Positions 1 to 25,432 of a DNA stretch of 64,000 nucleotides are shown here, one piece after another. A program made the translations under genes and the position numbers. The first letter of the stretch is position 1. The number at the start of each line of letters is the position of its first letter. The notes below the pieces were generated by a model. The model worked only from the letters and a program-made list of their open reading frames with translations. It had not been told where the DNA came from and made no database searches. This stretch comes from a virus (Duplodnaviria > Heunggongvirae > Uroviricota > Caudoviricetes): IMG/VR virus record IMGVR_UViG_3300031760_000026. One strand, 5' to 3'.

Positions 1-4
1 ATGC

Positions 5-40
5 AGGAGGGGGGTGTATTTTTTAATGGCACCCTCCCCC
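5..40. other. GC-rich inverted repeat (GGAGGGGGGTG ... CACCCTCCCCC) at the window edge; possible terminator or structured element
   Basis: Near-perfect 11-bp G/C stem with a 13-nt AT loop seen directly in the sequence. It is the only GC-rich stretch in an AT-rich region. Confidence 0.3.
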
Positions 41-162
41 ATAAGCAGTATATCCCCCGAAAGATTCTATTTTTATATTATTTTAACCCGTTTTAATTAC
101 ATTTTTTATAAAAACTAATAAATTTCTTTGAATTAAGACAGGTATGGGCAATTACCTATTCA

Positions 163-396
163 TTATTTCTTAACTTTAATGTAATTACCATATAGATTGT
201 ACTTTAAAATCTCATCAATTGCTTGATTAACCACATAGTTCTCGTCTTCGGGGGACAGATCCGAAGAATCCTTTGCAATTCTAGCTATGTAGCCGCATGT
301 GTGATAGCCATGGCGTTCATCAAATGCAAACCATTCGTCGAATTGAGTAAAAGGATCATACGGATTGTCAGTGGTAGTCAACATGTAATGATCCAT
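163..396 (-). CDS. hypothetical protein
   Basis: 77-aa ORF with coherent, acidic/aromatic composition. No motif recognised. Confidence 0.35.
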   Translation of the reverse strand: MDHYMLTTTDNPYDPFTQFDEWFAFDERHGYHTCGYIARIAKDSSDLSPEDENYVVNQAIDEILKYNLYGNYIKVKK

Positions 397-659
397 ATTG
401 CATAGTCCTCGCGTTTTACACTATTCATAATTTCTCATTTAGGCATCGATTAAGTCATGCAATAAGCGATTTTAGAATTAATCCAAAAGCTATAGAAGCA
501 TTCCTGTTTTAAGGCATTCCTAAATATTTCATTGGCATTTAGTTAGAAAGCTTTCTTTTATTGGTCATCTCAAATAGATACTAAAAGGCATATAGAAACA
601 GATAAAAACTATTGCAAACCAAAATGGGTTATAAGAATTCCTAATAATAGGTGCCAATA

Positions 660-1312
660 AGTCAATTAAAAAATATCCATAAACCAACTTAGAGATCACT
701 CATAATAAGTGCAATAGCATAATGGTTATTAAAAGACTAGTTTAAAAATATCCATAAACTAGCTTAGAGAGTTCTTATAAAAGGTATTATGGACGCTAAA
801 AAGTCTATTTGAAAATATCCATAAACCAACTTAAAGAGCTCCCATAATAGATACTAAAAAGCCTGTTTAAAAATATCCATAAACTAACTTAAAGAACTCT
901 TATAATAGATACTAAAAAGTATGTTTGAAAATATCCATAAACCAACATAAAGAGTTTCTATAATAGATACTAAAAAGCCCGTTTGAAAATATCCATAAAC
1001 CAACTTAAAGGGTTCCTATAATAGATACTAAAAAGCCCATTTGAAAATATCCATAAACCAACTTGGAAAGCTCCTATAATAGATACTAAAAAGCCCGTTT
1101 GAAAATATCCATAAACCAACTTGGAAAGCTCCTATAATAGATACTAAAAAGCCTATTAAAATATCCATAAATGAACTTAAAAGATTCTAGTAGATGCAAT
1201 AAATGCCAAAAAAGGCCTAATTGAAAATATCCATAAGCCAACTTAAAGGATTCTAATAACTGTAATAGATACTAAAAGGCCAGATTGAAAATATCCATTA
1301 AGTTAATTATTC
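660..1312. repeat. tandem array of ~11 direct repeats with a ~59-60 bp period (unit approx AAAATATCCATAAACCAACTTAAAGAGCTCCTATAATAGATACTAAAAAGCCCGTTTGA); candidate iterons/origin or binding-site array
   Basis: The core AAATATCCATAA recurs at ~672, 757, 817, 877, 937, 997, 1051, 1110, 1167, 1227 and 1290. The units are contiguous with no spacers, diverge only mildly, and sit immediately 3' of the 915-aa RNAP-like gene. Confidence 0.85.
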
Positions 1313-4054
1313 ACTTAATTCTCTATTAAGAGTGGAAGTGGATACTCCAATCGCATCTGCAACTTCTGCATAAGTATAACCCTTATTAAGAAGAGTTCTA
1401 GCCCTCGATTTAGCAGCTGCAGACATTCCTTTATTAGCTCTAGGAGTCGCACGCTGTTTCAAATCATCGATATTAGTATACTTAAGAATTTCTGTCAGCA
1501 GATTGTCACTAATTGCTCCGGCTTGAATCGCTTTCCATTCTCTATCAGAAATGGTAATTGCAATGTTGTTTGGATTACTAGGATTTCTGCTTCTAGTGCC
1601 AACGGCTTTTCTGGCTCTTTCGATTTCCTGGGAACGAATCTTCTTTTTATCGTCTTTGTCCAAATTTGGATTTGCATTGATTCTCGCTGAACTTTTCACA
1701 CTAGCAATCATCTGAGCCTGGCGCTCCAAAGGAGAATTCTTTTTAGCAATATTAAGCTGGCTAATCAAAGAGGCTCTTTCAGAGGCATAAGCTTCTTTTG
1801 CAGAAGCATTTTGCTTAAGCCGGCCAGTATTAAGCATTTCTTTTCTAGCGCTATTAGCAAGACTTTTCAGCTTATTAGCATGATTAGCATAAATATCTTC
1901 AATGATCGTACCGGAGGACAGATCGTATGCGTTTCCACCTTTATTATAGATTTCAGTCATCTTGTCGCTCTTAATAGTTTTTGGCTGATAACTTCCATCT
2001 TTTTGTTGCTTCATCTTTCCGGTGGTTCTAAATATCTTATTGCCCTCAAGATAAGAAGCTTTCTCTTCATCGGTCATCTTGCTAAGAGACCTTACTTCTG
2101 TGCGATCAAGGACATACTCAGGAGACTTAGCTTTGGATATCAAAGTAGAAGATCCACCATTTGCTTTTCCTTGGTATTTCTTATTAAGCTCCTTGATACC
2201 ATTATCCTTTTCAGATGCGCGCCAATCCAGATTATGCTTTTCGGCATCGATGACAACCATTGAATGACGAACTGCCCTAGCAATTTCCTGATCTGTAGCA
2301 TTCCGAATTGTCATATCGGTTATAAGATTCGAAACTTTGCCCATCTGCATTTGCTTATGGAAACCAGTATCAGGACCGGTTTTAGGCATTCCTTCATATG
2401 CAGAATATCTTTCTTTAGGGTCAAAGTCTCTTAAGCCATAAAGTGGGGAAGATGGATTAACTTTCTCGCCAGCAATAATTTTAATTCCTTTGGTGGGAAT
2501 AACAGTTACAGTATCGCCGTCAAAATCTGCTCCGGACAATTGTTTTGCAACATTAGCGTTAATTCCAACTGCGGTTTTTGCATTGCCGAGAAGTTTTCTA
2601 CCTTCTTCATTATTGTTATTAACTCGAAGTCTCGGCATTTCAAAAGGACCAGCATGAGGATATCTTATTAAGACAACTTCTTCTCCGTTCTCATAATTAG
2701 GAGCATAGATTTCGGAGTCTTTAAGAGAACCAACTGGTAAAATAACGTGTGCGGCTTGTCTTGGGAGAGCAGCGGCTTTTAAATGCACCGCATTAGAATC
2801 GCAATCATCAGCGAATGATTCCAGAAGTTTACGCTTGATCGTTGGGTTAGTTAATGAACAAATCTCATCAAACTCCTGCTTCTTCTCTTTATAAGTAATA
2901 TCCAGCTGCTTCTTGGCCAACTGTGGAGGTTGCTTTGAAAGAAACTGAGAAGAAAGATTCTTAGACCACTTTTGCCAATCTTCATCTTCATTGACAATAT
3001 TTAAAGCTCCACGTTGATCTTTGATGGATGCTCCAAATGGGTTGCTTTCATCAACTTTACCAGTCGACTTATCCTTCTTCATTTCTTTAAGAACATCCAT
3101 TTTAGGAGTTCCTTCATGTTTATTGGTATTAAAGACAATATCCACGCCTTCAGGCATATTGTCCCCATACATCGCCATGCCCTTAAGATAGTGAGTGCCA
3201 TCGACAGCGATTCTCACCTGAGCATAGCGACTTTGGCCAATATCCAGATCCGGAACACCTTCACGAATCTCAATAACGCCATCTTTTTCAGAGCCGCCTT
3301 CTTCAGAATATCTTATTTGAACTCTATCAGAACTGATGCTTTGGGGCTTCTGAAAGGTCTTAACAACCTCGCCATAATCTTCAAACTTAATTCCTTCAGG
3401 AGAAGAAATCTGATCTCGATGTTGATACACTTCGGAGTACGGAACATCGTCTTTTGTAAGAACGATAACATTGGTTTTTTGAGTCGGATCACTTGCTTGA
3501 GGCACAGAGATTCGATGATAAGAATATCCATCCTGCTTAAGAAGCTCGACGGCCGCTTTCATCTGCTCTTTGGAAACATTAAGCTGAAGTTCAACACCTT
3601 CGCCAACATCCAAATATTTTCTTTCTTCAACTTGTTTTTTAAGCTCATCAGCAAGAAGTGTAGCTTTATCTCTACGAGCTTGGAAAGTAGGATCTAAATA
3701 ATGACGAACTGTAGATTCTGGAATTCCCAATTCTCTAGCAATCGCCATCTTGGAATTTCCAGCATCATATAAAGTCTGGACTCTGCGAATAGTATCTTTC
3801 TTCTGTTCATTCACAGCAATAGTGTGCATCGCTCGATACTGGCCAGTACTCATTCCAAAAGCTTCCGCAACTTGCTTATCTGTCAAACCTTGCTTCTTAA
3901 GATCGTTTGCTCTCTGAAGAAAGTTCTTATTTCGTTGAGGGTTTTTACCAGAGCCCCAAGGATATCTACCGGAATGCCTAGGGGTTCCATAATGTTCAGC
4001 ATCTTCTTCAACGTCTGGTAAATATCCATGATAGTTACTAAGCATCTTACTCAT
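1307..4054 (-). CDS. Large HTH-containing protein with an RNA-polymerase beta-prime-like double-psi beta-barrel catalytic motif (YonO/crAss-like non-canonical single-subunit RNAP or RNAP-like primase)
   Basis: The segment RYPHAGPFEMPRL...TAVGINANVAKQLSGADFDGDTVTVIP aligns with the beta-prime active-site region (R.P..H...NADFDGDQMAVH.P), with the DFDGD codons at about nt 2506-2532. There are sigma region-4-like HTHs near the N-terminus (LTDKQVAEAFGMSTGQY; MAIARELGIPESTVRHYL) and at the C-terminus (YTYAEVADAIGVSTSTLNREL). An AGGAG-type RBS lies upstream. Confidence 0.55.
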   Translation of the reverse strand: MSKMLSNYHGYLPDVEEDAEHYGTPRHSGRYPWGSGKNPQRNKNFLQRANDLKKQGLTDKQVAEAFGMSTGQYRAMHTIAVNEQKKDTIRRVQTLYDAGNSKMAIARELGIPESTVRHYLDPTFQARRDKATLLADELKKQVEERKYLDVGEGVELQLNVSKEQMKAAVELLKQDGYSYHRISVPQASDPTQKTNVIVLTKDDVPYSEVYQHRDQISSPEGIKFEDYGEVVKTFQKPQSISSDRVQIRYSEEGGSEKDGVIEIREGVPDLDIGQSRYAQVRIAVDGTHYLKGMAMYGDNMPEGVDIVFNTNKHEGTPKMDVLKEMKKDKSTGKVDESNPFGASIKDQRGALNIVNEDEDWQKWSKNLSSQFLSKQPPQLAKKQLDITYKEKKQEFDEICSLTNPTIKRKLLESFADDCDSNAVHLKAAALPRQAAHVILPVGSLKDSEIYAPNYENGEEVVLIRYPHAGPFEMPRLRVNNNNEEGRKLLGNAKTAVGINANVAKQLSGADFDGDTVTVIPTKGIKIIAGEKVNPSSPLYGLRDFDPKERYSAYEGMPKTGPDTGFHKQMQMGKVSNLITDMTIRNATDQEIARAVRHSMVVIDAEKHNLDWRASEKDNGIKELNKKYQGKANGGSSTLISKAKSPEYVLDRTEVRSLSKMTDEEKASYLEGNKIFRTTGKMKQQKDGSYQPKTIKSDKMTEIYNKGGNAYDLSSGTIIEDIYANHANKLKSLANSARKEMLNTGRLKQNASAKEAYASERASLISQLNIAKKNSPLERQAQMIASVKSSARINANPNLDKDDKKKIRSQEIERARKAVGTRSRNPSNPNNIAITISDREWKAIQAGAISDNLLTEILKYTNIDDLKQRATPRANKGMSAAAKSRARTLLNKGYTYAEVADAIGVSTSTLNRELSE

Positions 4055-4608
4055 TCTCCTTCATCCTGAATTTGAGACAATCTCTTATCAAAGAAAATAA
4101 TTTTATCCATAATCGTAAGAATGTCTTCCGGCTCAGGATTCAACACGGAAATTTCATCCGACTGGTAAATGCGGAGTTCCATTTCAATCTGATTTGGATC
4201 AACACTATACTCTAAACAAAAAAGAGCAGCATAAATCATAAGCTGCTCCATATGTGCCGGAGTTATTCCAGATTTCAGATCGTGTATCCGCAAAAAGTTG
4301 TTTCTAAAAGAAATAGAATCTGCAGTCCCAAAGCAATTATTTGAATAATATAAAGGCTGTTCGGGGGTCATCTTGAAACCAATTGCGTCATTAACATACA
4401 TATTCAATGTCTTTTTTGACTTCGGCAATTTGATTCCAAGCTCAATCGCTTTTCTAGCAAAATCATGAAGCTCGGTCCCTCTTTGGATAGCCAAATTACT
4501 CTGGTATGCAGATATCAATTTCTCTTCATCATAGTTTAGCCAATGATACTTAGATGCGCTTAGAAATGCATGTTTTCCTTCTAGGTTGAAGTGCTTGTTG
4601 AAGTTCAT
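4051..4608 (-). CDS. PD-(D/E)xK family nuclease (Cas4/RecB/YqaJ-like)
   Basis: Motifs GTELHDF ... GTADSISF ... LRIHDLKSG match the D...(D/E)xK signature. The start overlaps the upstream VRR-NUC ORF. Confidence 0.5.
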   Translation of the reverse strand: MNFNKHFNLEGKHAFLSASKYHWLNYDEEKLISAYQSNLAIQRGTELHDFARKAIELGIKLPKSKKTLNMYVNDAIGFKMTPEQPLYYSNNCFGTADSISFRNNFLRIHDLKSGITPAHMEQLMIYAALFCLEYSVDPNQIEMELRIYQSDEISVLNPEPEDILTIMDKIIFFDKRLSQIQDEGE

Positions 4609-4870
4609 TCAGTACCTCCGCCTCATTCTCTGGAAATATAAAGCGAGCAAATGACATTTGATTTGCTTGCTCTACATAGTAATCTTGATTGCTTTGATGA
4701 ATCTCATTTTTAGACTTTTTGCACTCAAGGAATGCCCATCGATCTTCATAAAGAATTGTAAGATCTGGAATCCCTTGAATATAGTTTGGATCATTTTTTA
4801 AAACTATGCATCCAGGAAATTCATCTTTAATTTTTTTAATCAAGTTACTTTGAAACTTGTTTTCTTTCAT
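4550..4870 (-). CDS. VRR-NUC-like PD-(D/E)xK nuclease
   Basis: GIPDLTILYEDRWAFLECKKS has a D..ExK arrangement typical of VRR-NUC. Small protein (106 aa). Confidence 0.45.
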   Translation of the reverse strand: MKENKFQSNLIKKIKDEFPGCIVLKNDPNYIQGIPDLTILYEDRWAFLECKKSKNEIHQSNQDYYVEQANQMSFARFIFPENEAEVLNELQQALQPRRKTCISKRI

Positions 4871-4944
4871 AGTCTTTTCCGCTCCGAAATATAAAAGGAG
4901 CTGCCATATCTCCTCTATTATAAGGAATGTATTTCTTGCGAATT

Positions 4945-6177
4945 TTAAGAATATACAAAACCACTTTCGTTGAAGTTTTTCTTCTGTTTAAGAGCTCTCG
5001 AGATAGCCAAGTCCAAAGGGCAACTGGATTTTAGCCGATAGTAATATAAATCTTTGTATGGAGTGTTCATCCGATCTATTCTTCCGGCCGACTGAACCAT
5101 AATTTTGTAAGAATAGTTCAATGAATAAAAAATTATCGTGTCGGTCTGTATGCAATTCCAGCCTTCTGCTCCGGCAGTATACTGCACCAAATATACCCAC
5201 TTTTCACCATTTGGAATGTACTCATGTTTATGCCCATTCCATTCGGCGACCTGAACACCGGGGCCATAATCAATAGATTTTAAAATATCCAATTCGTAAT
5301 CATAATTATAGAAGATTATTGTCCTAGGATGATTCTTCCTCAGTTCTAATATGGCTTCTACTCTACTTGGATCACTATTAATTACTCTCCTTGCTGTATA
5401 ACATAGTTCTGCAGCATTTACGATTGGGGAATCTGAAAATATATTCCATCTCTTTCCCATTACAAACTTATATGTTTCTTTGTCATAATCGACGGTAATT
5501 GTTTCATGATGTGTGACTGTTGGACGAGTATAGTCCATATTGATAAGGATCTTATTTCTTAGTTTAATCAATCGACCTTGGTCCAAATATCTATCAACTT
5601 GTGGAAACTTGGCAAACCTCTTGTATACAACATGCCTGGTTATGAACTCGCTTTTATTCTTGTAAAAACCATTTGCTACAAACACCGGCATGTAATCCAT
5701 CCATGTATCACCTGGAGTTGCGCTTAATAATATCCATCTATTCCTTTTGGCTATTTGCCAGAAAGATTTGGTCCACGCTCCAGATCCGACGACCCTTTGT
5801 TCATCAAATATAAAGAATGAGTCTTTCACATTAATGTACTTCTTAATGTTGTTCCAAGAATCAATCACCAATGACATCTGACCAAAATATAAAGAATCTT
5901 CATTATTTGAAATTAGAAATGGGGAGCATTCTTTTTCCCACTCTTTGGTATCTCTTTTTCTAGCAGTGGTAATAATATAAAGGTCTTTCGGGTTCTTCAT
6001 TGGATAATAGTCATCTTTTAAGCCCTTTGAAAACCCATCAAGTATGCCATTACACTCTTTTGTGAAAAAATATGCCAATGACGTTCTTGATTTGCCAGAC
6101 CCAACTCCTCCGCAAAGAATAGATCCATTACCCAATCGATCAACAGCATCCCATTGGTAATCATATAAAAAACTCAT
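4945..6177 (-). CDS. SF2 DEAD/DExH-box helicase
   Basis: Walker A is GGVGSGKS, motif II is FIFDEQRV (DExx) and motif III is LLSATPG. Helicase C-terminal-like region follows. Confidence 0.8.
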   Translation of the reverse strand: MSFLYDYQWDAVDRLGNGSILCGGVGSGKSRTSLAYFFTKECNGILDGFSKGLKDDYYPMKNPKDLYIITTARKRDTKEWEKECSPFLISNNEDSLYFGQMSLVIDSWNNIKKYINVKDSFFIFDEQRVVGSGAWTKSFWQIAKRNRWILLSATPGDTWMDYMPVFVANGFYKNKSEFITRHVVYKRFAKFPQVDRYLDQGRLIKLRNKILINMDYTRPTVTHHETITVDYDKETYKFVMGKRWNIFSDSPIVNAAELCYTARRVINSDPSRVEAILELRKNHPRTIIFYNYDYELDILKSIDYGPGVQVAEWNGHKHEYIPNGEKWVYLVQYTAGAEGWNCIQTDTIIFYSLNYSYKIMVQSAGRIDRMNTPYKDLYYYRLKSSCPLDLAISRALKQKKNFNESGFVYS

Positions 6178-6732: not shown

Positions 6733-6766
6733 AATTAATAGCTCCTTTCAAAAATATAAATAATTA
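6733..6766 (-). promoter_or_regulatory. example of the recurrent upstream motif TTATATTTTTGAAAGGAG-N(7-10)-ATG (promoter-like element fused to the RBS)
   Basis: On the minus strand: TTATTTATATTTTTGAAAGGAGCTATTAATT ATG. The same motif precedes ~20 genes in the window (see findings). Confidence 0.5.
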
Positions 6767-9700
6767 AGAGGCAAATGCCTCGAAATCTCCATACTGAGAA
6801 ATCGAAGTAATTGCCTCATCTACCATTGCCGCATAATATCTTCGGTCGATGTCATCTTCTTTATGCAGAGTCTTTACCATTTCGGACTCCATCCAACGAT
6901 ATCCCTTCGTCCCCGTGGCTGCGCTATACTTACCATTCTTTTCTCTCAAAAGAATTCCGCCGCCACATCCTGGTTTAATTGGGCAGAAAGAACCGGCTTT
7001 ACCAACAAATTGGTAGTTATGACCAGAACAAATCCGAGAATATAAATCTACAGCTTCTTTTAATGCTGACTGATACTCTTCGTTCTGGTATGAAATATCC
7101 ATGTCTCCAGCAGCAAATGCTTTCGCAGTATTCTGAATGCCAATTAGATCAAATCCATGTTCCTTACAGATTTTATCAAGATGCTTCTCATACTCGCTAA
7201 CATCTGGAAGATTCTCATTCATGTCCAAATATAAGGCCGAGGTTACAGTTTTAGTTTCGCACATGTCTCGGAATCCGATTGCAGATTTACTAAACAATGT
7301 TTTGAATACATATGGAACCTGAAACTGTGTGCCTGTTGCAGTCCAAGCGGTTTTTACACTTTCGCCAGTAGGAAGCTCAAAGTCATGCTCGCCATCATCA
7401 TACTTAGCAATATAAACTGCATCATTAACTAAGCACATCTTGGCATATGTGGCCTCATGCTCAAAAGTATATCCATACTGCTTTCCATAATTCATAACAA
7501 ACTCAATGATCTCTGGAGTCGCATCAGGAATCTTGATTGAGTCTGTTTTAATATGCGCCACAGTATAGCCACGATCCTGAACCTCATGCTTCAAATTAAT
7601 CATGAATAAGGCTCCACGTTTAGCCACGATATTATCAATGTTGCGAGGATCTTTGAATGGATTCTCAAATGTTGCCGATGTCAAACCATATACACTATTA
7701 ATCGCAATCTTTAATGCATATGACAAAGCCTTTGCCTGCTTTCCATCAGTTAAATATTTAGAAAGTTTTCCACCAAACAGATTTCCTGCTGCCTCAAAGT
7801 CTTTATGCTTAATATAAATTCGAGCTTGCTTAATGTCACTGAAGTTCTTTGTATACGGACCAAACAGATTTAGGCACTCAATACTCGTCGGGTGCATAGA
7901 AGCGATGTCTAGCAGTGCCACATTGGAGTACATGCCAGGCTCAGAATATACATAGCCACCTTCACCAGTTTCCTCACCTCTATAAGTACTCTTTCCATGA
8001 TCATACTTATACCCAGGAAACATTTCTGAAAGATCAGTATACACAAACTGAGATTGGGGCTTCTTTTCTGATCCAAATATAATTCTAGTAGTATGCATGT
8101 TTGTCGTGGCATTCACATTCAAACCGGAAATATCCGCCAGAATCTCTCTTGCCACAAAATCCTCGTGACGTGCATTAAATACTGCTTCAGTAGCAATGAC
8201 ATCATTATCGCAATACTCAGCCACCTTCTCCCAAAGTTCTTCTGGAACAGGCTGATCCCACGGAAGACCGAGTTCCTGATGATGAATATCAAGTTCGATT
8301 TCCCACTTTTTCAAGCTCTGTTTCTTAGCACAGAAGTCATATACATCTGTGTAAGAAATATCATACGCTTCTCCAAAGAAGGCATTAGAACTTCCGCCAA
8401 TAATCCTTTGAGACAGCTCATAAATCTGAGATTCGGAATATCCAAGCATTCTGGCATAAAGAATGTGGTTATCGTAGCGTCGACAGTTAAAACCAACAAG
8501 TTTAAATCTAATCAGATCCTCAATCTCATTTGGAGACGGATTGATCATTCTATTTACCGGATTTCCTTCTCCTTCTTTCTTCCAGTTAACAAGAAGAAGA
8601 TTAGGGAAAACCTCGACATCATAGAATATCAAGAAGTCTTCCAAAGATTCCATTGCTTCTGATGGTTCATCTGACTTAAAGTGCATTTGATCAACCATCT
8701 TTAAACAATCAGATGCATGGTGACTACTCTTAGCCGCAAAAGTCATAATATAAGGTCTAAGATTTGTCACATCATAATGCATTCCACTTTCGTACGCGTC
8801 GTTTAAAACCTTCTTAATAAACTCACAGCTAGTAACTGTCGCATGTGGAGCATACTCTTTTGCCAGACTTCTCCGAATGATTGTTCTTAGGGCTTTCTCA
8901 TTTTTAATAGATTCAAAATTTACCACTTTGTCCTCCTTTCGAAGTGGTAAGCCAGAACTGATAGTTGCAAATATCAATGGCGCACACTTGGTAAGCTTAC
9001 GTCTCAATGAAGACTTACCACTAAACACCTTAACTTCGATTCCATCCTCATAGATTCTACTAAGCTTACTTACATCGCCATTGTAAATATAATGCAGATG
9101 GATTCCTTGCCCGCTCTTGCTAAGCTCAGCGTAAGTTTTAGGCCATTTAGAAGCTGCCTCGATGTTCCTTTCAAGAGACTTGTTGCCTTCGCGATCCTTT
9201 AAATCGAAATCGATTACGATATGATTCTCAGGCACTCTAACATAGTGGAGCTTGCTAGTGTCAAGATCTGATAGTCTTGTTGTAACTTCATCCCACTTTT
9301 TCCAAGGCCCCTCAGTGTCTGGGTTAGCATATTGAGCTAAAGCTGTAGCCATCTCCAAATCAAACGGAGACTTAGTCTCAACAAACTGAAGCCAAGTTCG
9401 ATCTTCAGAATTGCCTAGCTCTTCAGCCCCTGAAATATCTTGCTCATTAGATTGCTCCTCCTCGATGCCAAACTTACTAAGCTTTAAGCCGCTATAATAG
9501 TTTCTAACTTGATTGTCATCCTTATCTCTAGCTCTATCATCAAAATGTTCAAAATAGTTTTTAAGCTCTTCTTTAAATAGCCTCTTGCTATATGGATAAG
9601 GAACTTTAGCTTCTTCACAGTATTCCTTGTATCTAGTCCATGCTTGCTGAAGAGTAACTCCATCCGCCTGCCTAAAATCAAAGAAATTTTCCTCCATATA

Positions 9701-10759
9701 GTTAAAGAAGTCGTTAGTAGCTCCAAGCATTGACTTAGGAATATAATTTTCATATGCTTCTTTATCTTCTTCATATACTTTAAGGCAATGATATGCAATT
9801 GCCCCAAGTTCGAAGTCGATCTTTTTCATAAGTTGATTATATCTCTTATAAGGAATCTTCTTTTCAGTAGGGGAAACATCGATAAGCCTTCGAATAATAC
9901 CTGATTTACTATCTGTAATCCTGACTGGACTATTTGTTCCCATAAACAGCATTGCATGGAATCTCGTAGAATATAATTTAGAATACTTCTCATTCACGGT
10001 CATTTCTTCATGGGAAACCAAACTATTTAAACGAGTATTATCTTCAATTCTACTCAAATTACCATCATGCTGAATTCCAACTAATGGATTATTCTTGAAT
10101 GGTTCGAGAGCAAAAGCGTCCGTGCTACTTCCAAGTGCTTTGGCATCAAACGAAGCACAATATCCATTAAATAACTTTTGGATAATATTCAAGATAGTTG
10201 ACTTGCCAGTACCGGCGCTTCCATAAAAAACTAGAAACTTTTGAATTAACTTGCTATCACCATTCACAACAGATCCAATAGCCCATTCGATCTTATGTCG
10301 CTCTGGTGCAGAATATAAAGTTCCAACTAATTCATCCCAAGCTTCGATACTTCCTTCTTCCAATGCATAAGGCAATCTCATACTCGCATAGTCTTCTCTA
10401 TTTACCGGACTATTTGCAAATATCAATTTCTCATCAAGATTATGAAAGTTATCTCTCATTTGCTTCTGGCAATACTTGTGCCACTTGTCAATCATCCCAG
10501 TATCGCCATTCCACAAATATAAAACTTTTGCATCTGCCAAAGCAGGATTATTTTTCTTGTATTGATCTAACTCATGGTCGATTAAGTCTACTACATCATC
10601 CTGAGATTTAGACCATAAACCTTTATTCTCATCCCATATAGCATAAAAATCGCCGCCACGAATCATTAAATCTTTTGATGCCTTTGTGATAAATACTGGA
10701 TAGATTTCTGCAGGACCAGTCTTTTTCTGCTGTCGCCAAGTAACTTTTAGAAAATCCAC
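6764..10759 (-). CDS. Replicase fusion: SF3 (P4/D5-type) helicase, archaeo-eukaryotic primase (AEP), 3'-5' exonuclease and family B DNA polymerase
   Basis: SF3 motifs are Walker A FYGSAGTGKST and motif C FMGTNSP (aa ~180-280). AEP motifs are HIVIDFDLKD (DxD) and SGQGIHLHYIY (sxH) at aa ~520-560. Exo I is FYDVEVFPN and Exo II is YCDNDVIA. PolB motif A is DIASMHPTS, motif B is KIAINSVYG and motif C is HIKTDSIKI. Confidence 0.85.
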   Translation of the reverse strand: MDFLKVTWRQQKKTGPAEIYPVFITKASKDLMIRGGDFYAIWDENKGLWSKSQDDVVDLIDHELDQYKKNNPALADAKVLYLWNGDTGMIDKWHKYCQKQMRDNFHNLDEKLIFANSPVNREDYASMRLPYALEEGSIEAWDELVGTLYSAPERHKIEWAIGSVVNGDSKLIQKFLVFYGSAGTGKSTILNIIQKLFNGYCASFDAKALGSSTDAFALEPFKNNPLVGIQHDGNLSRIEDNTRLNSLVSHEEMTVNEKYSKLYSTRFHAMLFMGTNSPVRITDSKSGIIRRLIDVSPTEKKIPYKRYNQLMKKIDFELGAIAYHCLKVYEEDKEAYENYIPKSMLGATNDFFNYMEENFFDFRQADGVTLQQAWTRYKEYCEEAKVPYPYSKRLFKEELKNYFEHFDDRARDKDDNQVRNYYSGLKLSKFGIEEEQSNEQDISGAEELGNSEDRTWLQFVETKSPFDLEMATALAQYANPDTEGPWKKWDEVTTRLSDLDTSKLHYVRVPENHIVIDFDLKDREGNKSLERNIEAASKWPKTYAELSKSGQGIHLHYIYNGDVSKLSRIYEDGIEVKVFSGKSSLRRKLTKCAPLIFATISSGLPLRKEDKVVNFESIKNEKALRTIIRRSLAKEYAPHATVTSCEFIKKVLNDAYESGMHYDVTNLRPYIMTFAAKSSHHASDCLKMVDQMHFKSDEPSEAMESLEDFLIFYDVEVFPNLLLVNWKKEGEGNPVNRMINPSPNEIEDLIRFKLVGFNCRRYDNHILYARMLGYSESQIYELSQRIIGGSSNAFFGEAYDISYTDVYDFCAKKQSLKKWEIELDIHHQELGLPWDQPVPEELWEKVAEYCDNDVIATEAVFNARHEDFVAREILADISGLNVNATTNMHTTRIIFGSEKKPQSQFVYTDLSEMFPGYKYDHGKSTYRGEETGEGGYVYSEPGMYSNVALLDIASMHPTSIECLNLFGPYTKNFSDIKQARIYIKHKDFEAAGNLFGGKLSKYLTDGKQAKALSYALKIAINSVYGLTSATFENPFKDPRNIDNIVAKRGALFMINLKHEVQDRGYTVAHIKTDSIKIPDATPEIIEFVMNYGKQYGYTFEHEATYAKMCLVNDAVYIAKYDDGEHDFELPTGESVKTAWTATGTQFQVPYVFKTLFSKSAIGFRDMCETKTVTSALYLDMNENLPDVSEYEKHLDKICKEHGFDLIGIQNTAKAFAAGDMDISYQNEEYQSALKEAVDLYSRICSGHNYQFVGKAGSFCPIKPGCGGGILLREKNGKYSAATGTKGYRWMESEMVKTLHKEDDIDRRYYAAMVDEAITSISQYGDFEAFAS

Positions 10760-16647: not shown

Positions 16648-16697
16648 GATTCAAATATAATTCCTGTCATTATAGACGGTGTAAAAGTTGCGGGTTA

Positions 16698-17237
16698 TTA
16701 GGATTTCTCCCAGCACCAAATAAAGTCGGAAATGGCCTTTGCTGTTTCCCAACAATAGACATTAGGAATTTGCATTTGGTAGAAATTTACTTTTGCCTCA
16801 AAGCATGGACTAAATGATCTAACATCATTACTTAATCGTTGACGTATTTTTTCAGGAGAATCTCCCCTTAATTCCATTCTCTTTTGGCATTCATCAAGAT
16901 CCACCAGAAGACGAATGGCAATTACTCCTTTATTTCCATGATACTTTTGCCTCAGATAATCAACTCCATATGGATCAATCACGTAAATATCATTTTGGTC
17001 AATTACTTCAGGAGTGACTCCATAGCGATGCCCATCGTATTCCGTATAGGCGCACATCTCACCAAGAGCATCAAACTCCTCATCAGACACAAAAATATGC
17101 CCTTCCTCATTTGGATAACGAGGAGGGCGTGTCGTGTAGGATTCAACAAGATTCAATCCATAATCACGCTCGAGGATTTTAGAAATAGTCGACTTGCCAG
17201 ATCCAGAAGGCCCGACAATACAGTAAATGTTTTTCAT
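16698..17237 (-). CDS. guanylate-kinase-like nucleoside monophosphate kinase
   Basis: GPSGSGKSTI (P-loop) ... SYTTRPPRYPNEEGHIFVSDEEF matches the Gmk signature S.TTR..R.GE.DG..Y.FV. Confidence 0.6.
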   Translation of the reverse strand: MKNIYCIVGPSGSGKSTISKILERDYGLNLVESYTTRPPRYPNEEGHIFVSDEEFDALGEMCAYTEYDGHRYGVTPEVIDQNDIYVIDPYGVDYLRQKYHGNKGVIAIRLLVDLDECQKRMELRGDSPEKIRQRLSNDVRSFSPCFEAKVNFYQMQIPNVYCWETAKAISDFIWCWEKS

Positions 17238-17584
17238 GATCCAAAATACACTCCAAAAATTACACTTAAATATAATGTCTCATAACTGACTCGACCTTTC
17301 TGAGCAGCGACTAACTTATTGATTGCATCAGCCTCATCACGAGAGCATCCTTTGGACATAGCCCATTTTCGAAAGGACTTCTTTGTATGCTTAGATTTCA
17401 ATTTGCATTTTGCAGTAAATTCGACGTCGTCTAAATATAATTGCTTATTAGACCATTTTTCTTCAAGTGGTTCATTTACAGTTTCAATATTTACAGTTTT
17501 CAGGCCTTTCCAAGTAACTGATTCGCCAGTATATGTTGACAAAATCAATCCTTCTTGTTCTGAGACTGACTCCCTAATTAGCAT
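17234..17584 (-). CDS. hypothetical protein
   Basis: 116-aa ORF, translationally coupled to neighbours. Confidence 0.35.
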   Translation of the reverse strand: MLIRESVSEQEGLILSTYTGESVTWKGLKTVNIETVNEPLEEKWSNKQLYLDDVEFTAKCKLKSKHTKKSFRKWAMSKGCSRDEADAINKLVAAQKGRVSYETLYLSVIFGVYFGS

Positions 17585-18189
17585 TACTTCAGTCCCTCCA
17601 AACTCTCTCGAAGCTCCTTAAGCCACTGATTCGTCACAGCAACGCTCATAGTTTGCCTAGTTGTCTGATCTCTCCAGTAAGAAATATCATTATTAAGTCG
17701 ATTAATTTGGTTTCTATACCAATCATCATCTGAAATGCTTTGGATCTTCTTAATTTCCTTTTCAATATCACAAGTATTTTCTCTAGATATTCCGAGCTGC
17801 TCAATAGCAAAATATCTAAGGTTATTGATGCTATCATGCTTAGGCTGCCAAGCTTCAAGCTTCTTAGTCATTTCAGTAAGCCTGGAGTTTTCAAGAGTTA
17901 GCTTTTCATGAAATTCCTTCTCAGATTTGATCTTATCCTGTCTCCATTTCTCAGCCTCTCTATGAATGTCATTCTCATCCATCACAAGAAGTTCGGACAA
18001 TTCCTTCTTGGCTTTTTCGTAAAGATTTTGATAGTAATCATCTTTTTGTCTGGTCTCTGGAATAGGAGTGTCCATCGGCTCATCTCGTATAAAGGCAAGA
18101 TAGTCAATTTCCCGAGCACATCTCAAAATATAATCCTTCGCCGAGGTCATCTTTCCATCCATAACAGGTTCTGTATACCAAGTGGGCAT
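17584..18189 (-). CDS. hypothetical coiled-coil protein
   Basis: 201 aa, rich in Glu/Lys/Arg heptad-like segments. Confidence 0.35.
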   Translation of the reverse strand: MPTWYTEPVMDGKMTSAKDYILRCAREIDYLAFIRDEPMDTPIPETRQKDDYYQNLYEKAKKELSELLVMDENDIHREAEKWRQDKIKSEKEFHEKLTLENSRLTEMTKKLEAWQPKHDSINNLRYFAIEQLGISRENTCDIEKEIKKIQSISDDDWYRNQINRLNNDISYWRDQTTRQTMSVAVTNQWLKELRESLEGLK

Positions 18190-18204
18190 ATGCTAAGTCC
18201 TCCT

Positions 18205-18732
18205 TTAGTCGAAAGATCTATATGCAGGAAGGGATAGCTCCCATGTTTCATCATCAAATGGAATAATATCTCTTGTAGGCCTTACTCCTACAATATCACT
18301 TTCTTTCCAGCCAATTTTATTAAATGTAAATTTATTAGGAACCATCGTGTCCGGCCTTAAATCGCATAAGTCTGCTATAGTGACAGTTCCATATGTTTTG
18401 GCGAGATCCTGAAGATCCGCAAGTATAATTTCTGCAGCACTACGGCTATCAAATGTAAGCAATTTATTTAGATCTTCTGGCGAAATGTGTCCATCATATT
18501 GAATTTTCGGCTTATACCGGTAAGTTGGTTTATGGCCGTTTCTTCTATTTGAATGCATTTCTCCACCATAAAACAAAATATCAAGTTTATTGATCACAAG
18601 TTCATGGAAGTAATCTGAATAACTAATTCTATTCGGATTATAAGGTTTATAGGTGTGCACTTTTGTAAGAGTGTACTTATTACTAAGAAAATATCCGACT
18701 CCTACCAGCCCAAGTCCTTTCAAGAGATTCAT
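18205..18732 (-). CDS. hypothetical protein
   Basis: 175-aa ORF directly downstream of the ATPase gene. Confidence 0.35.
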   Translation of the reverse strand: MNLLKGLGLVGVGYFLSNKYTLTKVHTYKPYNPNRISYSDYFHELVINKLDILFYGGEMHSNRRNGHKPTYRYKPKIQYDGHISPEDLNKLLTFDSRSAAEIILADLQDLAKTYGTVTIADLCDLRPDTMVPNKFTFNKIGWKESDIVGVRPTRDIIPFDDETWELSLPAYRSFD

Positions 18733-19370
18733 TATTTTGCTCCTTTCTTATACCTTCTGCCTTTAATTTCTCGTGTCCTCATAATCATGTTGCGATAGGT
18801 ATTATACGTTTTGAATCGTCTATGCTTGCCAGTGCATACGACGATACAATCTTCATCCGCAGCCAATTCATAGCTGTTAGCCGAGCAGATGATGTAAATA
18901 TCATTTTCCTTGTTCTCGAAGTCTTTGATGATTACTTTAAACAGACTTTCTTTAAGTTCAATAATGTTGTCGATCGAGAATCCAGAATCAACTCCATCGA
19001 GCAATACAAAAATATCCTTCCCGGGATTTTTTCTGATAAATTCACCAATTTGATAGGCAAGGCTCTCAAGCCTGACCATGATTTGCTCGCCTTCAGAACA
19101 GCTTACCCATGAAAAGAATTCCCTGGCATCAGCATCGCCTTGAATAAGCCTATTATCTCGTTCCAGTCTTTCACGATCGTATTGGAAAAATATAACAGGT
19201 TCCCCGACTCCATCTAGCTTCTTTCGGATCTGCTTTAAAAGGGTTGTTTTGCCAGATCCATTGCAGCCAATAAGCACAGTAAGCCCTGTCTCGAATACAA
19301 ACTTTCCAGTCTTATATAAGTAGACTCCGTGCTCATAAATATCACGGTCAACCCTCATTCTAATGCTCAT
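18732..19370 (-). CDS. P-loop ATPase (ABC/AAA_21-like)
   Basis: Walker A LIGCNGSGKTTLL and Walker-B-like IFVLLDGVDSG. Confidence 0.5.
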   Translation of the reverse strand: MSIRMRVDRDIYEHGVYLYKTGKFVFETGLTVLIGCNGSGKTTLLKQIRKKLDGVGEPVIFFQYDRERLERDNRLIQGDADAREFFSWVSCSEGEQIMVRLESLAYQIGEFIRKNPGKDIFVLLDGVDSGFSIDNIIELKESLFKVIIKDFENKENDIYIICSANSYELAADEDCIVVCTGKHRRFKTYNTYRNMIMRTREIKGRRYKKGAK

Positions 19371-19560
19371 ACGCCTTCACCGCCTCGAGAATATACTCTG
19401 CGATCTCCATCTGCCTTTTCTTTTTCTCCATAGTGATCTTTCCGCCATGCGAATTTTCATAGTTGAACTTCATCATCTTGAATCGGGTCTCTGCACTTTC
19501 AATTGCTCGCTCACGAATAGTCAGATTTTCATCAAGTTCGTTCATTCTTATCCTCCTCAA
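19360..19560 (-). CDS. hypothetical small protein
   Basis: 66-aa ORF. Confidence 0.3.
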   Translation of the reverse strand: MRRIRMNELDENLTIRERAIESAETRFKMMKFNYENSHGGKITMEKKKRQMEIAEYILEAVKAYEH

Positions 19561-19765
19561 TTACTTGGAAGTGGTCCACACCAAAAGGATACTTGTTTCT
19601 AAATATCACAACTGCTTCAGGCACTTGCTCAAGATGTTCGTCCATTCCATAGCCTCTAGTTTCGCTTTCTACTTTCACGAGTACATCGTATTCAGGTACA
19701 CCATAAGTTTCAGCAATGAGTTTCTGAATATCTTTTTCATTGAGAGTTACTACACAATGCATCAT
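19532..19765 (-). CDS. hypothetical small protein
   Basis: 77-aa ORF. Confidence 0.3.
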   Translation of the reverse strand: MMHCVVTLNEKDIQKLIAETYGVPEYDVLVKVESETRGYGMDEHLEQVPEAVVIFRNKYPFGVDHFQVIEEDKNERT

Positions 19766-20367
19766 TCACCCTCCTTCCGAGTAAACCATCCGCACTTAAA
19801 ATATTGGTATGTATTGACGTCAAAATTCTGGACGTCGTAATCAGGAATTACTTTTCTGCCACAATATAATCTGATAGAAAGCGGATCTTCGGTGATGGTG
19901 CGTTTAAGTTCAAAATACTCATCTTTTGGAAATCTATAACCCGTCATCTGCATCCAAGTCGATCCATATGGCATAATTCCTATAAACCTCTCAGGATGCT
20001 GATTCGTGGCTCCAAATATAATAGGGCCATCACCGTATTTGACTTCTTTACCGCCTTCTTTAAGATATGCGACATAGTCAAAATCATGAATAATATGGAT
20101 CTTACGTATTGTTTCATTATTCTTAGCGTTAAATGCAAATCTATCCGCAGAATAAATAATATCGCTTGGGATGATGAGCGCGATCAAATCTAATAAAGTA
20201 GACTTCCCAGTTCCTGGTCCGCCAGAAAATATCAAATTAGTTGGTATTTCTTCTAACTTTCCTACAGCTGCAAGTCCAATAATCTCTTCAAGTCTTTCTG
20301 CCTGAGGATACCAAAGAACACAATCTACTAAGCTGTTCCAAGCCAAAACAGAATCTGAGTAAGCCAT
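19762..20367 (-). CDS. P-loop NTPase with SF3-helicase-like core
   Basis: Walker A FSGGPGTGKST and motif-C-like IIFGATNQ. Confidence 0.45.
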   Translation of the reverse strand: MAYSDSVLAWNSLVDCVLWYPQAERLEEIIGLAAVGKLEEIPTNLIFSGGPGTGKSTLLDLIALIIPSDIIYSADRFAFNAKNNETIRKIHIIHDFDYVAYLKEGGKEVKYGDGPIIFGATNQHPERFIGIMPYGSTWMQMTGYRFPKDEYFELKRTITEDPLSIRLYCGRKVIPDYDVQNFDVNTYQYFKCGWFTRKEGE

Positions 20368-20430
20368 TTTTCTCCTTTCAAAAATAAAGAAGGGTGTAAA
20401 AAGTACTCCACACCCTTCTTTGCATTTGCC

Positions 20431-21864
20431 TTACCAGCAATACTCCTCGATCCTCTTCTCCAGGTTTCCTTCTCCCTGCTCAGCAAGAAGGATGAAGTCA
20501 AAGATCTTCTCAGACCAGCCGGCAATAATGTTGGTATGCTTGCCATGGAACTGCTGAGTGCCATAACCATGCAAATCAATGGCGTGGACCCAAATATCAT
20601 TGTCAGTCATCCGGCGATACTGATCAGCATAGGACTGAATTGTGGACTTTCCGCACCATCCGCCATTGCACTCATTATCTGAGAGAATGATGATGCGGTC
20701 GGCTTTGATCTTGCCATCGATCATAGCCTGAAACGGAAGCCTCATGTCAGTGCCGCCAGAAGGATGAGCATAGCGGATAGTGTTCTCAATGAGTCCACCA
20801 CGTCTGGAGATATCCATTCTCTTAATGGAATGATTGAACGTATACACGATGGAGTCATCGCAGATACGGTTGGCAATCAGACCAAGAAGAACGGAAATAT
20901 CGCAGCACTTAACATCGGACTTAGAGCTGATGCATGAGCTCATCGAGCCAGAAGTATCCATGGCAATGATAGTTCTACCTGGAATCTTCGGAAGATTCTC
21001 AACAGAAATATCAATGGCGTCCTCAAGAGTGTCGAAGACCTTGCTGCTGGCGATTCCATTAAGGCTTCTATAAGCATTGAGGAAACGGAAGGGGAGCTGC
21101 TTGGATTTCCGAACTGCCTCAGGATTCCGAATATAATTAAGCGCCTCATCCAGATTGTCCGGACCGGCATTAATAGTATTTCTCAGATTCCGAAGCATAG
21201 CCATGTAGCCAACTTTATGGCTGGCGATGAGTTCCTCCCAGACTTCCTTTGTATTGCCTTTAGTGGACAGCTCAGTTTCCCAGGTGTAAGGAGTCTCGAG
21301 AGTTCCTTCAAGGCAGTGCTTCCAAAGAGCTTCCTGCTCCTTATTTACTGGCTTAGGTCTGCAGAGGCAAAGCAGGTCTCTCATCTTTACTTCCTTACCA
21401 GAGCCCTTGTATTTGGCAAGAGAGTACTCGTCGAGAGTCTGCATGACTTCGCCAATGCCCTTCTTCAGAGAGTTCGGAATAGGCTTGCCAAACTCCGAAA
21501 TATAAAAAGCCATAATCTCAGTCAGGTCATCGCCTCTGAGACATACGCCTTTTACAGTGGAGCGGACAAAGGGCTTACCCTCAACCTCATGTGCCAAATA
21601 TCCCGTAAGGACATGAGACACAGAGCGCATGTTGAACTCTCGTCTTGCAAAGACTGCAAGATTGGAGACAAACTGCGGGTCCTCCTTAATGACCTTAGGA
21701 ATGAGCTCCTTCATTTCCTTGGAGTTGTCTCCATAGAACTTCTTCTCGTTGAAGAAGCTCGTGAGGACCTGAGTAACAAGCTTGGACTTATTACTCATCT
21801 TGTACGCTACATGGCCCTCGTGGTTAGTGGTCTTAATGCTCGGGGAAGAATTGAATTTTGCCAT
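20431..21864 (-). CDS. rsr: Ro60-like protein (TROVE domain + vWA/MIDAS), bacterial Rsr homolog
   Basis: The N-terminus is NHEGHVAYKMSNKSKLVTQVL...FYGD (TROVE-type start). A C-terminal vWA domain carries the MIDAS motif IIAMDTSGSMSS. The start is refined to ATG at 21864 (MAKFNSS) with a GGAGG RBS; the track's 55-aa N-terminal extension runs through an ncRNA. Confidence 0.75.
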   Translation of the reverse strand: MAKFNSSPSIKTTNHEGHVAYKMSNKSKLVTQVLTSFFNEKKFYGDNSKEMKELIPKVIKEDPQFVSNLAVFARREFNMRSVSHVLTGYLAHEVEGKPFVRSTVKGVCLRGDDLTEIMAFYISEFGKPIPNSLKKGIGEVMQTLDEYSLAKYKGSGKEVKMRDLLCLCRPKPVNKEQEALWKHCLEGTLETPYTWETELSTKGNTKEVWEELIASHKVGYMAMLRNLRNTINAGPDNLDEALNYIRNPEAVRKSKQLPFRFLNAYRSLNGIASSKVFDTLEDAIDISVENLPKIPGRTIIAMDTSGSMSSCISSKSDVKCCDISVLLGLIANRICDDSIVYTFNHSIKRMDISRRGGLIENTIRYAHPSGGTDMRLPFQAMIDGKIKADRIIILSDNECNGGWCGKSTIQSYADQYRRMTDNDIWVHAIDLHGYGTQQFHGKHTNIIAGWSEKIFDFILLAEQGEGNLEKRIEEYCW

Positions 21865-21914
21865 TTTCAAGCACCTCCGAAAATATAAATGTTTTAGTGA
21901 ATGCAGAGAAAATT

Positions 21915-22016
21915 GGTTACGGACTATAAAGCTCTTTGATCTACCAACTGATCTACTACTCACGTTGAGTAGATTGGATTTGAACCAATGACACAAAAGG
22001 TGAAGTAACCGTAACC
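21915..22016 (-). ncRNA. Y-RNA-like (YrlA-like) ncRNA A: tRNA-like module with permuted order (T-arm, loop-closed acceptor stem, D-arm) enclosed by a terminal stem
   Basis: The minus-strand RNA reads GGTTACGG...ATTGG-TTCAAAT-CCAAT, then CTACTCA-ACG-TGAGTAG, then TA-GATC-AGTTGGTA-GATC...CCGTAACC. The ends pair over 8 bp (GGTTACGG/CCGTAACC). It lies immediately upstream of rsr. Confidence 0.55.
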
Positions 22017-22235
22017 TACACTGCTGCATAAATATAATTGCCTAGCGTTTCAAGCCCTTTTTAGCGGTGTCTCTGTTTCCGCAATCACGCATTGTCCAAT
22101 AGGGCTATGGGCTATAGGACTCACTCTATGTCGCCGACAGCATTTCAGCTTCCGCACGCATAGAGGATGGTCGATATTTTTATTCCGCATCATCCACTCT
22201 GCGGTAAATATGAATTGCGAGAGCGGAGAAAAGAA

Positions 22236-22340
22236 TTCACAGCTTGTGTTTACCAACTCACAGACAGTCCAATGGACCGCTATAGGATTTGAACCTATGC
22301 ACTTTTTCATATCGAAGTAACTGTGAATATCACTTCCGCT
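22236..22340 (-). ncRNA. Y-RNA-like ncRNA B (permuted tRNA-like module plus GAAGU...ACUUC hairpin)
   Basis: Minus-strand RNA has hairpin GGAAGTG-ATATTCACAGTT-ACTTC, T-arm ATAGG-TTCAAAT-CCTAT, a 7-bp acceptor-like stem GCGGTCC/GGACTGT closed by the loop ATT, and D-arm TGTG-AGTTGGTAAA-CACA. TTCACAG/CTGTGAA is a candidate closing stem. Confidence 0.5.
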
Positions 22341-22347
22341 TGCTCTG

Positions 22348-22779: not shown

Positions 22780-22814
22780 AAAGACTCCTTTCAAAATATA
22801 ATTGCCGAGAAAAG

Positions 22815-23095: not shown

Positions 23096-23129
23096 ACGCG
23101 GAGAAATATCATTACGGGCAAATTCTTAT

Positions 23130-23261: not shown

Positions 23262-23263
23262 AT

Positions 23264-25421: not shown

Positions 25422-25432
25422 AATATCACTCC

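Follow-up and report, generated by a model that had tools for sequence, protein, structure and literature searches.

A phage protein with a predicted single-chain two-barrel RNA polymerase core between helix-turn-helix domains and a candidate promoter cassette

All transcription in cells is carried out by two-barrel RNA polymerases (RNAPs), whose single-chain relatives are regarded as models for the ancestral form. To our knowledge, only few single-chain two-barrel relatives have been characterised, namely YonO, the crAss-like gp66, the P23-45 enzymes and QDE-1. A gene that resembles these enzymes lies on the minus strand of a 64,000-nucleotide (nt) stretch of DNA of a virus of the Caudoviricetes (IMG/VR record IMGVR_UViG_3300031760_000026; the whole stretch is hereafter called the window). 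Its 915-amino-acid (aa) product carries helix-turn-helix (HTH) DNA-binding domains at both ends, and the locus raises the question of whether such a protein makes RNA, from which template and at which sites. We describe here the predicted catalytic core of the protein, its place in an already described phage family, and a promoter-like cassette that recurs on the gene strand in intergenic regions. The new element is the cassette, conserved and oddly spaced, which as a concrete candidate promoter makes the function of the family testable.

Predicted architecture and catalytic residues of the 915-aa protein

The 915-aa open reading frame (ORF) was found where the original prediction had placed it, at positions 1307-4054 on the minus strand with an ATG start, and its product is predicted to consist of an HTH pair, a two-barrel core resembling RNA-dependent RNA polymerases (RdRPs), a helical region and a second HTH pair. 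An AlphaFold2 model was built from a 36-sequence alignment of homologs (58-93% identity) and reached a mean predicted local distance difference test score (pLDDT) of 77.8 and a predicted template-modelling score (pTM) of 0.55, with pLDDT values of 80-91 over aa 240-520. The segment LIRYPHAGPFEMPRL...TAVGINANVAKQLSGADFDGDTVTVIP (aa 462-520), which had been read as the catalytic barrel of the beta-prime subunit, falls inside positions 2492-2755, with the DFDGD motif at aa 510-514 (2513-2527). In the model, aa 434-521 (2492-2755, minus strand) form the predicted second, beta-prime-like double-psi beta-barrel with R464-x-P466-H467 and the metal loop D510-F-D512-G-D514. The residues R464, P466, H467, D510, D512, G513 and D514 are invariant in 36/36 homologs of the alignment and recur in homologs of 39-49% identity from Arthrobacter, Lactococcus and oral phages, one distant member having DNDGD in place of DFDGD. 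Because these residues are invariant in the 36 homologs and kept in distant ones, the DFDGD segment is not a chance motif. The invariant R464-x-P466 lies 46 residues ahead of D510, the corresponding spacing from R to DxDGD in QDE-1 being 45.

The predicted first double-psi beta-barrel, resembling that of the beta subunit, spans aa 240-355 (2990-3337, minus strand), with model strands at aa 245-248, 260-264, 277-284, 288-297, 306-309, 346-348 and 351-355. It holds D258, R281 and K291 in KDGVIEIR...YAQVRIAVDGTHYLKGMAMY, all three on predicted strands and conserved in 10/10 diverse sequences. Eight residues are invariant in all two-barrel RNAPs, corresponding to D709, R738, K743, R962, P964, D1007, D1009 and D1011 of QDE-1, and the Rpb1 counterparts of R962 and P964 are R446 and P448 (Ruprich-Robert & Thuriaux, PMC2919709). 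Candidate counterparts of all eight were found with QDE-1-like spacing, namely D258, R281, K291, R464, P466, D510, D512 and D514, where the equivalence of the first three to D709, R738 and K743 was drawn by motif and spacing and not by superposition. All eight are conserved across host phyla, in Arthrobacter, Lactococcus, oral and gut phages, and since the full catalytic set is conserved the enzyme is predicted to be active. The single chain is thus predicted from the model to carry both catalytic barrels, the beta-like followed by the beta-prime-like, as in QDE-1. The proposal that DFDGD marks the catalytic loop of a double-psi beta-barrel was therefore borne out, as the barrel is predicted around invariant residues and no unrelated fold was assigned to the region, and the lysine/arginine motif of a second barrel, named in the original prediction as the thing to look for, was recognised in R281 and K291 together with D258.

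At the N-terminus, HTH units were located at aa 43-65 and 86-120 (3695-3928, minus strand), and at the C-terminus at aa 837-869 and 879-914 (1313-1546, minus strand), on the basis of Pfam matches and helices in the AlphaFold2 model. Pfam assigned aa 86-120 to HTH_23 (50.4 bits) and HTH_7 (42.9 bits) and aa 883-914 to HTH_38 (37.6 bits) and HTH_3 (30.9 bits). The model places helices at aa 43-54, 59-65, 102-109 and 113-120 at one end and at aa 837-844, 850-858, 862-869, 879-890, 895-902 and 906-914 at the other, and the HTH-like units at aa 43-65 and 837-869 were seen in the model only. By Pfam and model together, the four HTH units are kept in every family member. That both termini carry HTH domains had been claimed beforehand and holds, but their description as sigma-like does not, at least not in the sense of sigma region 4 specifically. 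Sigma70_r4_2 passed its Pfam cutoff marginally (28.3 vs 25.7 bits), Sigma70_r4 remained under its own (22.6 vs 24.1 bits) and the NCBIfam model sigma70-ECF was far below its own (19.2 vs 42.9). As the generic families HTH_23, HTH_7 and HTH_38 all score above the sigma region 4 models and sigma70-ECF is sub-cutoff, the label is too specific.

Searches of PDB sequences with the single protein and with the 36-sequence profile yielded HTH matches only and none for the core. A Foldseek search of the model against PDB gave four significant matches, three to QDE-1 (E = 1.2e-8, 2.7e-8 and 1.1e-6) and one to Arabidopsis RDR2 (1.4e-4), while the largest subunits of RNAPs appeared at E ~0.1 or worse and were not significant; a fold search in BFVD added only further phage proteins labelled 'RdRP'. 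Residues 501-579 matched PF05183, the family of eukaryotic cellular RdRPs, at 16.0 bits and thus under the Pfam cutoff of 23.8, and the same family was matched independently and weakly by 29/36 family members (best E = 1.3e-5). The modelled protein is therefore RdRP-like in fold but outside PF05183 by Pfam's criterion. Of the earlier assignment as a beta-prime homolog, the kinship with two-barrel RNAPs stood, in the form of a predicted single-chain homolog, but the nearest structures are the cellular RdRPs QDE-1 and RDR2 and not beta-prime. Their identity to the window protein is only 11-12%, they act on RNA or single-stranded DNA in silencing, and there is no sign of terminal HTH modules in them.

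This kinship brings up a true RdRP, with RNAs of the phage or the host as templates to be copied or amplified, e.g. in regulation or counter-defence. The closest solved structures and the sole Pfam match of the core are indeed cellular RdRPs, and PHROG and GenBank labels use the same name, though they are derived from homology and not from experiment. On the other hand, the four conserved HTH domains point, as far as sequence can tell, to sequence-specific binding of double-stranded DNA, YonO with the same distant kinship is DNA-dependent, and Rfam detected no known RNA family in positions 1-5200 that could serve as an RNA element beside the gene. Furthermore, QDE-1 itself is reported to use DNA templates as well (PMC9508822). 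We consider an RNA-copying enzyme of this kind quite unlikely.

The best-conserved stretch of the protein lies outside its predicted domains. The N-terminal peptide HYGTPRHSGRYPWGSGKNP (aa 21-39; 3938-3994, minus strand) is predicted to be disordered, with pLDDT <50 for aa 1-40 and ~30 at the peptide itself. Y22-G36 are invariant across the 36-homolog alignment, and the peptide is conserved in actinophage, Lactococcus and oral-phage homologs; it was also the pattern picked by the search for related loci. It might be a docking motif for a partner, an initiation finger or a packaging signal.

Family membership and kinship to known polymerases

The protein aligned over aa 16-914 to positions 9-906 of the 909 of PHROG 4291 ('RNA-dependent RNA polymerase') with 1153 bits and matched no other polymerase PHROG, and NCBIfam holds no model for the PHROG 4291 family. 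A tblastn search retrieved 250 GenBank phage records, 249 of them full-length, with 39-50% identity. Their hosts were mostly Arthrobacter (95), Gordonia (55), Streptomyces (54) and Lactococcus (13), joined by Curtobacterium, Microbacterium, Rhodococcus and Faecalibacterium phages and human oral siphoviruses. GenBank labels these homologs either 'helix-turn-helix DNA-binding domain protein' or 'RNA-dependent RNA polymerase'. ORF75 of Lactococcus phage 1706 showed 36% identity over aa 8-910 (BLASTP). Among metagenomic protein clusters, 8000 of the 8000 scored candidates were relatives, and the matches listed carry HTH Pfam domains. DNA nearly identical to the window was not found among GenBank phages.

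The fusion of such a core with HTH domains at both termini, held to be undescribed in the original prediction, had in fact been reported. Koert et al. (2021, bioRxiv 10.1101/842583) described an RdRP-like core with HTH at both ends for this family and proposed the protein as a potential signature gene of an actinophage supercluster and of Lactococcus and Faecalibacterium phages. Phage 1706 had been listed in 2010 as one of five 'YonO-like' families, separate and distantly related (Ruprich-Robert & Thuriaux, PMC2919709), and the PHROG 4291 and GenBank labels point the same way. By sequence, the protein is a moderately divergent new member of an already described phage family.

ORF75 of phage 1706, PHROG 4291, the 'putative RNA polymerase' of FP_oengus and the 'HTH DNA-binding domain protein' at the right end of actinophage genomes belong to the same family end to end, the actinophage members being encoded by Arthrobacter AM/AU/AW, Gordonia DJ, Streptomyces BI, Rhodococcus CC and Microbacterium EL phages. 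The window protein shares with the ORF75 family the N-terminal peptide, both HTH ends, the DxDGD core, the position after an exonuclease gene, the trailing small ORF and the genome terminus. It differs from described members in being at most 50% identical to any GenBank phage protein, in that relatives in this gut/oral-type clade lie on larger contigs of ~80-97 kilobases (kb), and in the 58-nt repeat array between the gene and the small ORF.

YonO of the Bacillus prophage SPbeta is likewise a phage-encoded single-chain two-barrel polymerase of ~100 kDa; judged by PHROG matches (4291 only) and by the literature, it appears to represent a separate sequence family. YonO is a processive DNA-dependent RNAP for late genes whose promoter and cofactors are unknown (PMC5467207). 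In the Thermus phages P23-45 and P74-26, gp96 is reported to be a single-chain two-barrel RNAP that forms one polypeptide with the tape-measure protein and is carried in the virion. In contrast to this class, which also includes gp62, the window protein is free-standing and carries HTH domains. Unlike in the multisubunit beta/beta-prime enzymes, including the non-virion RNAPs of AR9 and phiKZ, both predicted barrels lie here on one chain of 915 aa.

A promoter-like cassette on the gene strand

Intergenic regions of the window repeatedly contain, on the gene strand, a compact cassette TTCGCA-N8-ACA-N5-TATAAT-GA. Its fuller layout comprises a hairpin and T-run, TTCGCA(A/T)-n-TTT(T/A)ACA-N5-TATAAT (or TATAGT/TTTAAT)-(G/A)A, a ribosome-binding site and a start codon. 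A weight matrix was derived from nine window sites only, and the maximum of 30 shuffles served as the threshold for each genome. The matrix found 22 sites on the gene strand and none on the opposite strand of the window, 9 and 0 in phage 1706, 4 and 0 in Arthrobacter phage Circum and 3 and 0 in Streptomyces phage RosaAsantewaa. No site was found by the matrix in the controls Lactococcus phage sk1 and Streptomyces phage phiC31, which infect the same host genera and lack the polymerase-like gene, sk1 having annotated sigma-A-type early promoters. Among 80 viral contigs with relatives (883 kb), there were 48 matches on the gene strand, 2 on the opposite strand and 0 in shuffled sequence, and most of the 48 lay 0.9-1.2 kb upstream of the polymerase-like gene. 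The cassette is thus strand-specific, lineage-specific and placed upstream of genes.

One cassette, TTCGCAAGAAATACATTCCTTATAATAGAG (4913-4942, minus strand; matrix score 31.8), starts directly past the helicase stop codon and, read from 4942 to 4913, heads an operon of an endonuclease gene (4870-4550), an exonuclease gene (4608-4051) and the polymerase-like gene. A syntenic cassette match occurs in the related loci L005, L008, L009 and L010. Sixteen of the 22 window sites (37889-51986, minus strand; 30 nt each, read downward) fall in a region of small genes, with first bases at 51986, 51612, 46101, 44336, 43880, 43409, 41647, 41295, 41189, 41029, 40628, 40257, 39857, 39544, 38809 and 37918. 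Another five (16665-31821, minus strand) begin at 31821, 28918, 27705, 24609 and 16694. None of the 22 sites falls in the structural region.

An unbiased 8-mer scan of phage 1706 returned among the top oriented words TATAGTAG (10 on the gene strand vs 0), ATAGTAGA (11 vs 0) and GTTTTACA (11 vs 2), and these form the same cassette, tttttCGCAtgTTTTACAtacacTATAGTAGAaag, which is intergenic in the early region. The version in Circum is tCGCGTAAATTACAcGGGCTATAATGA, and in RosaAsantewaa (59% GC) TCGCAAG-n-TTTACA-N5-T(A/T)AAAT-GAGACCCC occurs six times. Upstream of TATAAT, TTCGCA stands at a distance of 14 nt and TTTACA at one of only 5 nt, whereas sigma-70 spacing is ~17 nt, and because of these box distances the geometry of the cassette is unlike that of sigma-70 promoters. 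Moreover, the Shine-Dalgarno sequence starts at several sites 4-5 nt past the TATAAT box, so that a start site ~7 nt downstream of the box would fit badly. In the literature searched, the coverage of which was incomplete, the cassette is not mentioned.

Directly past the TATAAT box of the cassette at 4942 lies a hairpin AGGAG-loop-CTCCT followed by a T-rich run (4880-4912, minus strand), and a possible stem (AGAGG...CCTCT) stands at the same place in L005. The hairpin may function as an attenuator or as a structured 5' end of the RNA.

As the best explanation of the locus we propose, with about an even chance of being right, that the phage protein is a DNA-dependent RNAP which its own HTH domains direct to DNA, whichever promoters it reads. 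The HTH units flanking the core would bring the polymerase to specific double-stranded DNA sites, and with this built-in targeting no separate sigma-like factor would be needed. A DNA template is suggested, by analogy, because of the four HTH units and the precedent of YonO; we infer polymerase activity, the DNA template and site recognition by the HTH units alike. The candidate target would be the compact cassette TTCGCA-N8-ACA-N5-TATAAT-GA, the best candidate since, in phages of different host phyla, it has persisted alongside the gene and with a spacing unlike that of sigma-70 promoters. That the protein is a self-sufficient single-chain RNAP whose HTH domains read this compressed promoter, enzyme and promoter having been conserved together in phages of both Actinobacteria and Firmicutes, is a tentative extension which we regard as possible but doubtful. 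Alternatively, as with YonO, the target might be a late promoter close to the end of the genome. In this variant of the proposal the protein would be a YonO-like late-gene RNAP, and the gene just precedes lysis and structural genes on the circularised genome.

Several points weigh against an HTH-targeted polymerase that reads the cassette. The cassette holds a perfect sigma-A-type -10 box, so that it may be read by the RNAP of the host, perhaps aided by a further factor. The polymerase-like gene stands behind a cassette and comes last in transcription, and a virion protein or basal host transcription would therefore be required as a seed. Virion-packaged phage RNAPs, which enter with the DNA, are represented by those of N4, crAss-like gp66 and P23-45 gp96; in the record of phage 1706, ORF75 is absent from the several ORFs labelled structural. 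The genome ends, at which the late operon starts, were also scanned for a cassette acting as a late promoter, and nothing there rose above the matrix threshold. The closest folds with solved structures belong to enzymes that use RNA or single-stranded DNA as template, and the global TM-score to QDE-1 is low (0.26), which together with the pTM of 0.55 makes the relative arrangement of the domains uncertain. Furthermore, no biochemical study of any family member was found in the literature searched.

The family is very common, with thousands of clusters in metagenomes besides the 250 phage records in GenBank, and has DNA-binding domains fused to the catalytic core. If the enzyme proves able to read the cassette without help, it would offer promoter specificity in a compact and portable RNAP whose fold is unlike that of T7 RNAP. 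It would then also bear on the relation of sigma-like and TFIIB-like promoter recognition to the catalytic core, and would represent a minimal two-barrel RNAP with built-in promoter recognition among the nearest prokaryotic relatives of eukaryotic RdRPs. Promoter recognition was left open by the authors of the YonO study (PMC5467207). Should the cassette not be read by the enzyme, the family would still be a widespread predicted phage polymerase.

Genome end, repeat array and oriented word

Every gene in the window is on the minus strand. Upstream of the polymerase-like gene lie genes for a 1331-aa polymerase fusion, a single-stranded DNA-binding/annealing protein, a helicase, the endonuclease and the exonuclease, and this gene order is repeated in relatives from every host group, with lysis genes between the exonuclease and the polymerase-like gene in phages 1706 and P118. 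The 1331-aa fusion (6764-10759, minus strand) matches PHROG 4210 over its full length; aa ~694-904 match a DNA polymerase PHROG and aa ~117-438 several 'DNA primase' PHROG families, and the fusion is kept beside the polymerase-like module in relatives. The polymerase-like gene had been placed at the head of the replication module, which proved incorrect: it is the last large gene transcribed in the module, ~1.3 kb from the right cos end, followed only by the repeat array, a 77-aa ORF and the right genome end. The 77-aa ORF (163-396, minus strand) matches PHROG 4303, and a small ORF has the same position in the relatives examined.

Positions 1-40 (minus strand) hold a conserved, cos-proximal genome-terminal sequence of the right end, whose reverse complement reads ...GGGGGAGGGTGCCATTAAAAAATACACCCCCCTCCTGCAT. 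In this reverse complement (...GGGGGAGGGTGCC...CACCCCCCTCCTGCAT), a G-run, a spacer, a C-run and CTGCAT follow one another, and the same terminal sequence ends the genomes of Circum, RosaAsantewaa and 1706, just before the final 9-12 nt. The contigs of L008 and L009 stop ~170-200 bp past the small ORF, most of the 80 viral contigs with relatives end 0.3-0.9 kb past the gene, and in actinophages only ~300 bp separate the gene from the genome end. Because of the shared terminal sequence and the contig ends of relatives, position 1 of the window represents the right physical genome end. The packaging-end sequence appears, from these genome ends, to be conserved across host phyla.

In Circum, RosaAsantewaa and 1706, lysis and structural genes lie beyond the genome end on the circularised genome. 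In phage lambda, Q, PR', the lysis genes and cos follow one another, and the polymerase-like gene, as the last gene before the genome end in these three phages, shares a lambda-Q-like layout. The protein could accordingly be imagined as mainly an HTH transcription factor, e.g. a late-gene activator in the position of Q, with a structural or regulatory core devoid of catalysis, and most GenBank records do name it an HTH DNA-binding protein. Such a regulator, however, would hardly explain why conservation of all metal-binding aspartates and of the basic residues in the two barrels extends from phages of Actinobacteria to those of Firmicutes, which is difficult to understand without catalysis. 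We hold this explanation to be highly improbable.

Between the gene and the small ORF, the window carries an array of 11-12 direct repeats with a central period of 58 nt (645-1309, minus strand), which abuts the 3' end of the gene and whose units contain ATGGATATTTTC. The core TTTATGGATATTTTC occurs in 11 copies at 669-1301, vs 0.61 expected. The 11-copy array noticed beforehand next to the gene is thus real, but its period is 58 nt and not the 59 bp then given. In L004, a second metagenomic copy of the locus with an identical protein, the gap from the gene to the small ORF is 852 nt vs 910 nt, i.e. shorter by 58 nt or one unit, and the copy number may vary or one assembly may have collapsed a unit. 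As a conserved companion of the gene the array was rejected, since tandem arrays are lacking behind the gene in Circum, P118, D_HF5_2C, L005, L008, L009 and L010. Nor does it qualify as a dispersed phage promoter, its 15-mer core being found only within the array, or as a string of cassettes, the best matrix score being 4.6 bits. Loose dispersed repeats were seen near the gene in L009 (AATAAGATATTTG, four copies) and L005 (CTAAAGATATT, six copies).

In phage 1706 (L007), AAACTTCGGGAAAA and CTATCACGAAAAAAC occur in at least 3 copies each in non-coding sequence at 7630-8040. These repeats sit in the 450-nt gap directly upstream of orf75; they have another sequence, and lie on the other side of the gene, than the window array.

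The word RGATATT was likewise rejected as a binding word specific to the array, as its excess extends over the entire gene strand. In the window, 162 copies of GATATT stand against 63.7 +/- 7.9 expected, 149 of them on the gene strand and 13 on the other, and inside genes there are 120 copies vs 63.5 +/- 5.7 after synonymous-codon shuffling. Under this codon-shuffle control, ATATTT (z = 11.7) and GATATT (z = 8.8) are the top two outliers of 4096 hexamers. The oriented word T(G/T)ATATTT was found as TGATATTT 56 times on the gene strand vs once on the other and as TTATATTT 50 times vs once, where a 2nd-order Markov model expects ~4-5 of each. It is 2-4 times denser within 0-40 kb than within 40-64 kb. 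The bias is common to close relatives, and as a family-wide trait the word was discarded because it is absent from 1706 and Circum. Possible roles are lagging-strand priming sites, a transcription elongation signal or oriented protein-binding sites.

Iterated sites beside the gene would suit an origin-specific RNA polymerase or primase, in which the HTH units bind the repeats and the core makes RNA that primes or activates replication. A primase-type role for RdRP-like enzymes of phages was proposed by Aravind and colleagues (PMC3417536). The gene always stands at the end of the replication/recombination module, short iterated repeats accompany it in three lineages (the window, L009 and L005) and occur upstream of orf75 in 1706, and QDE-1-like enzymes take single-stranded templates. 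Nevertheless, the array is not conserved in relatives, its core word is spread over the whole gene strand, and in actinophages the genome ends only ~300 bp past the gene. In addition, this phage already has the 1331-aa polymerase fusion, and because it matches 'DNA primase' PHROGs priming is probably covered elsewhere. An origin-specific role therefore appears to us rather improbable, and a DNA-dependent RNAP targeted by its HTH domains is the reading we prefer.

Two further observations concern the distal part of the window. Five tRNA genes (Met, Gln, Gly, Leu and Pro; 49063-50469, minus strand) lie between structural-like genes and the small-gene region. A 607-aa ORF (57517-59340), within a region of large, probably structural, genes, contains at 58133-58719 a tandem duplication with a period of 318 nt, 1.8 copies and 78% match.

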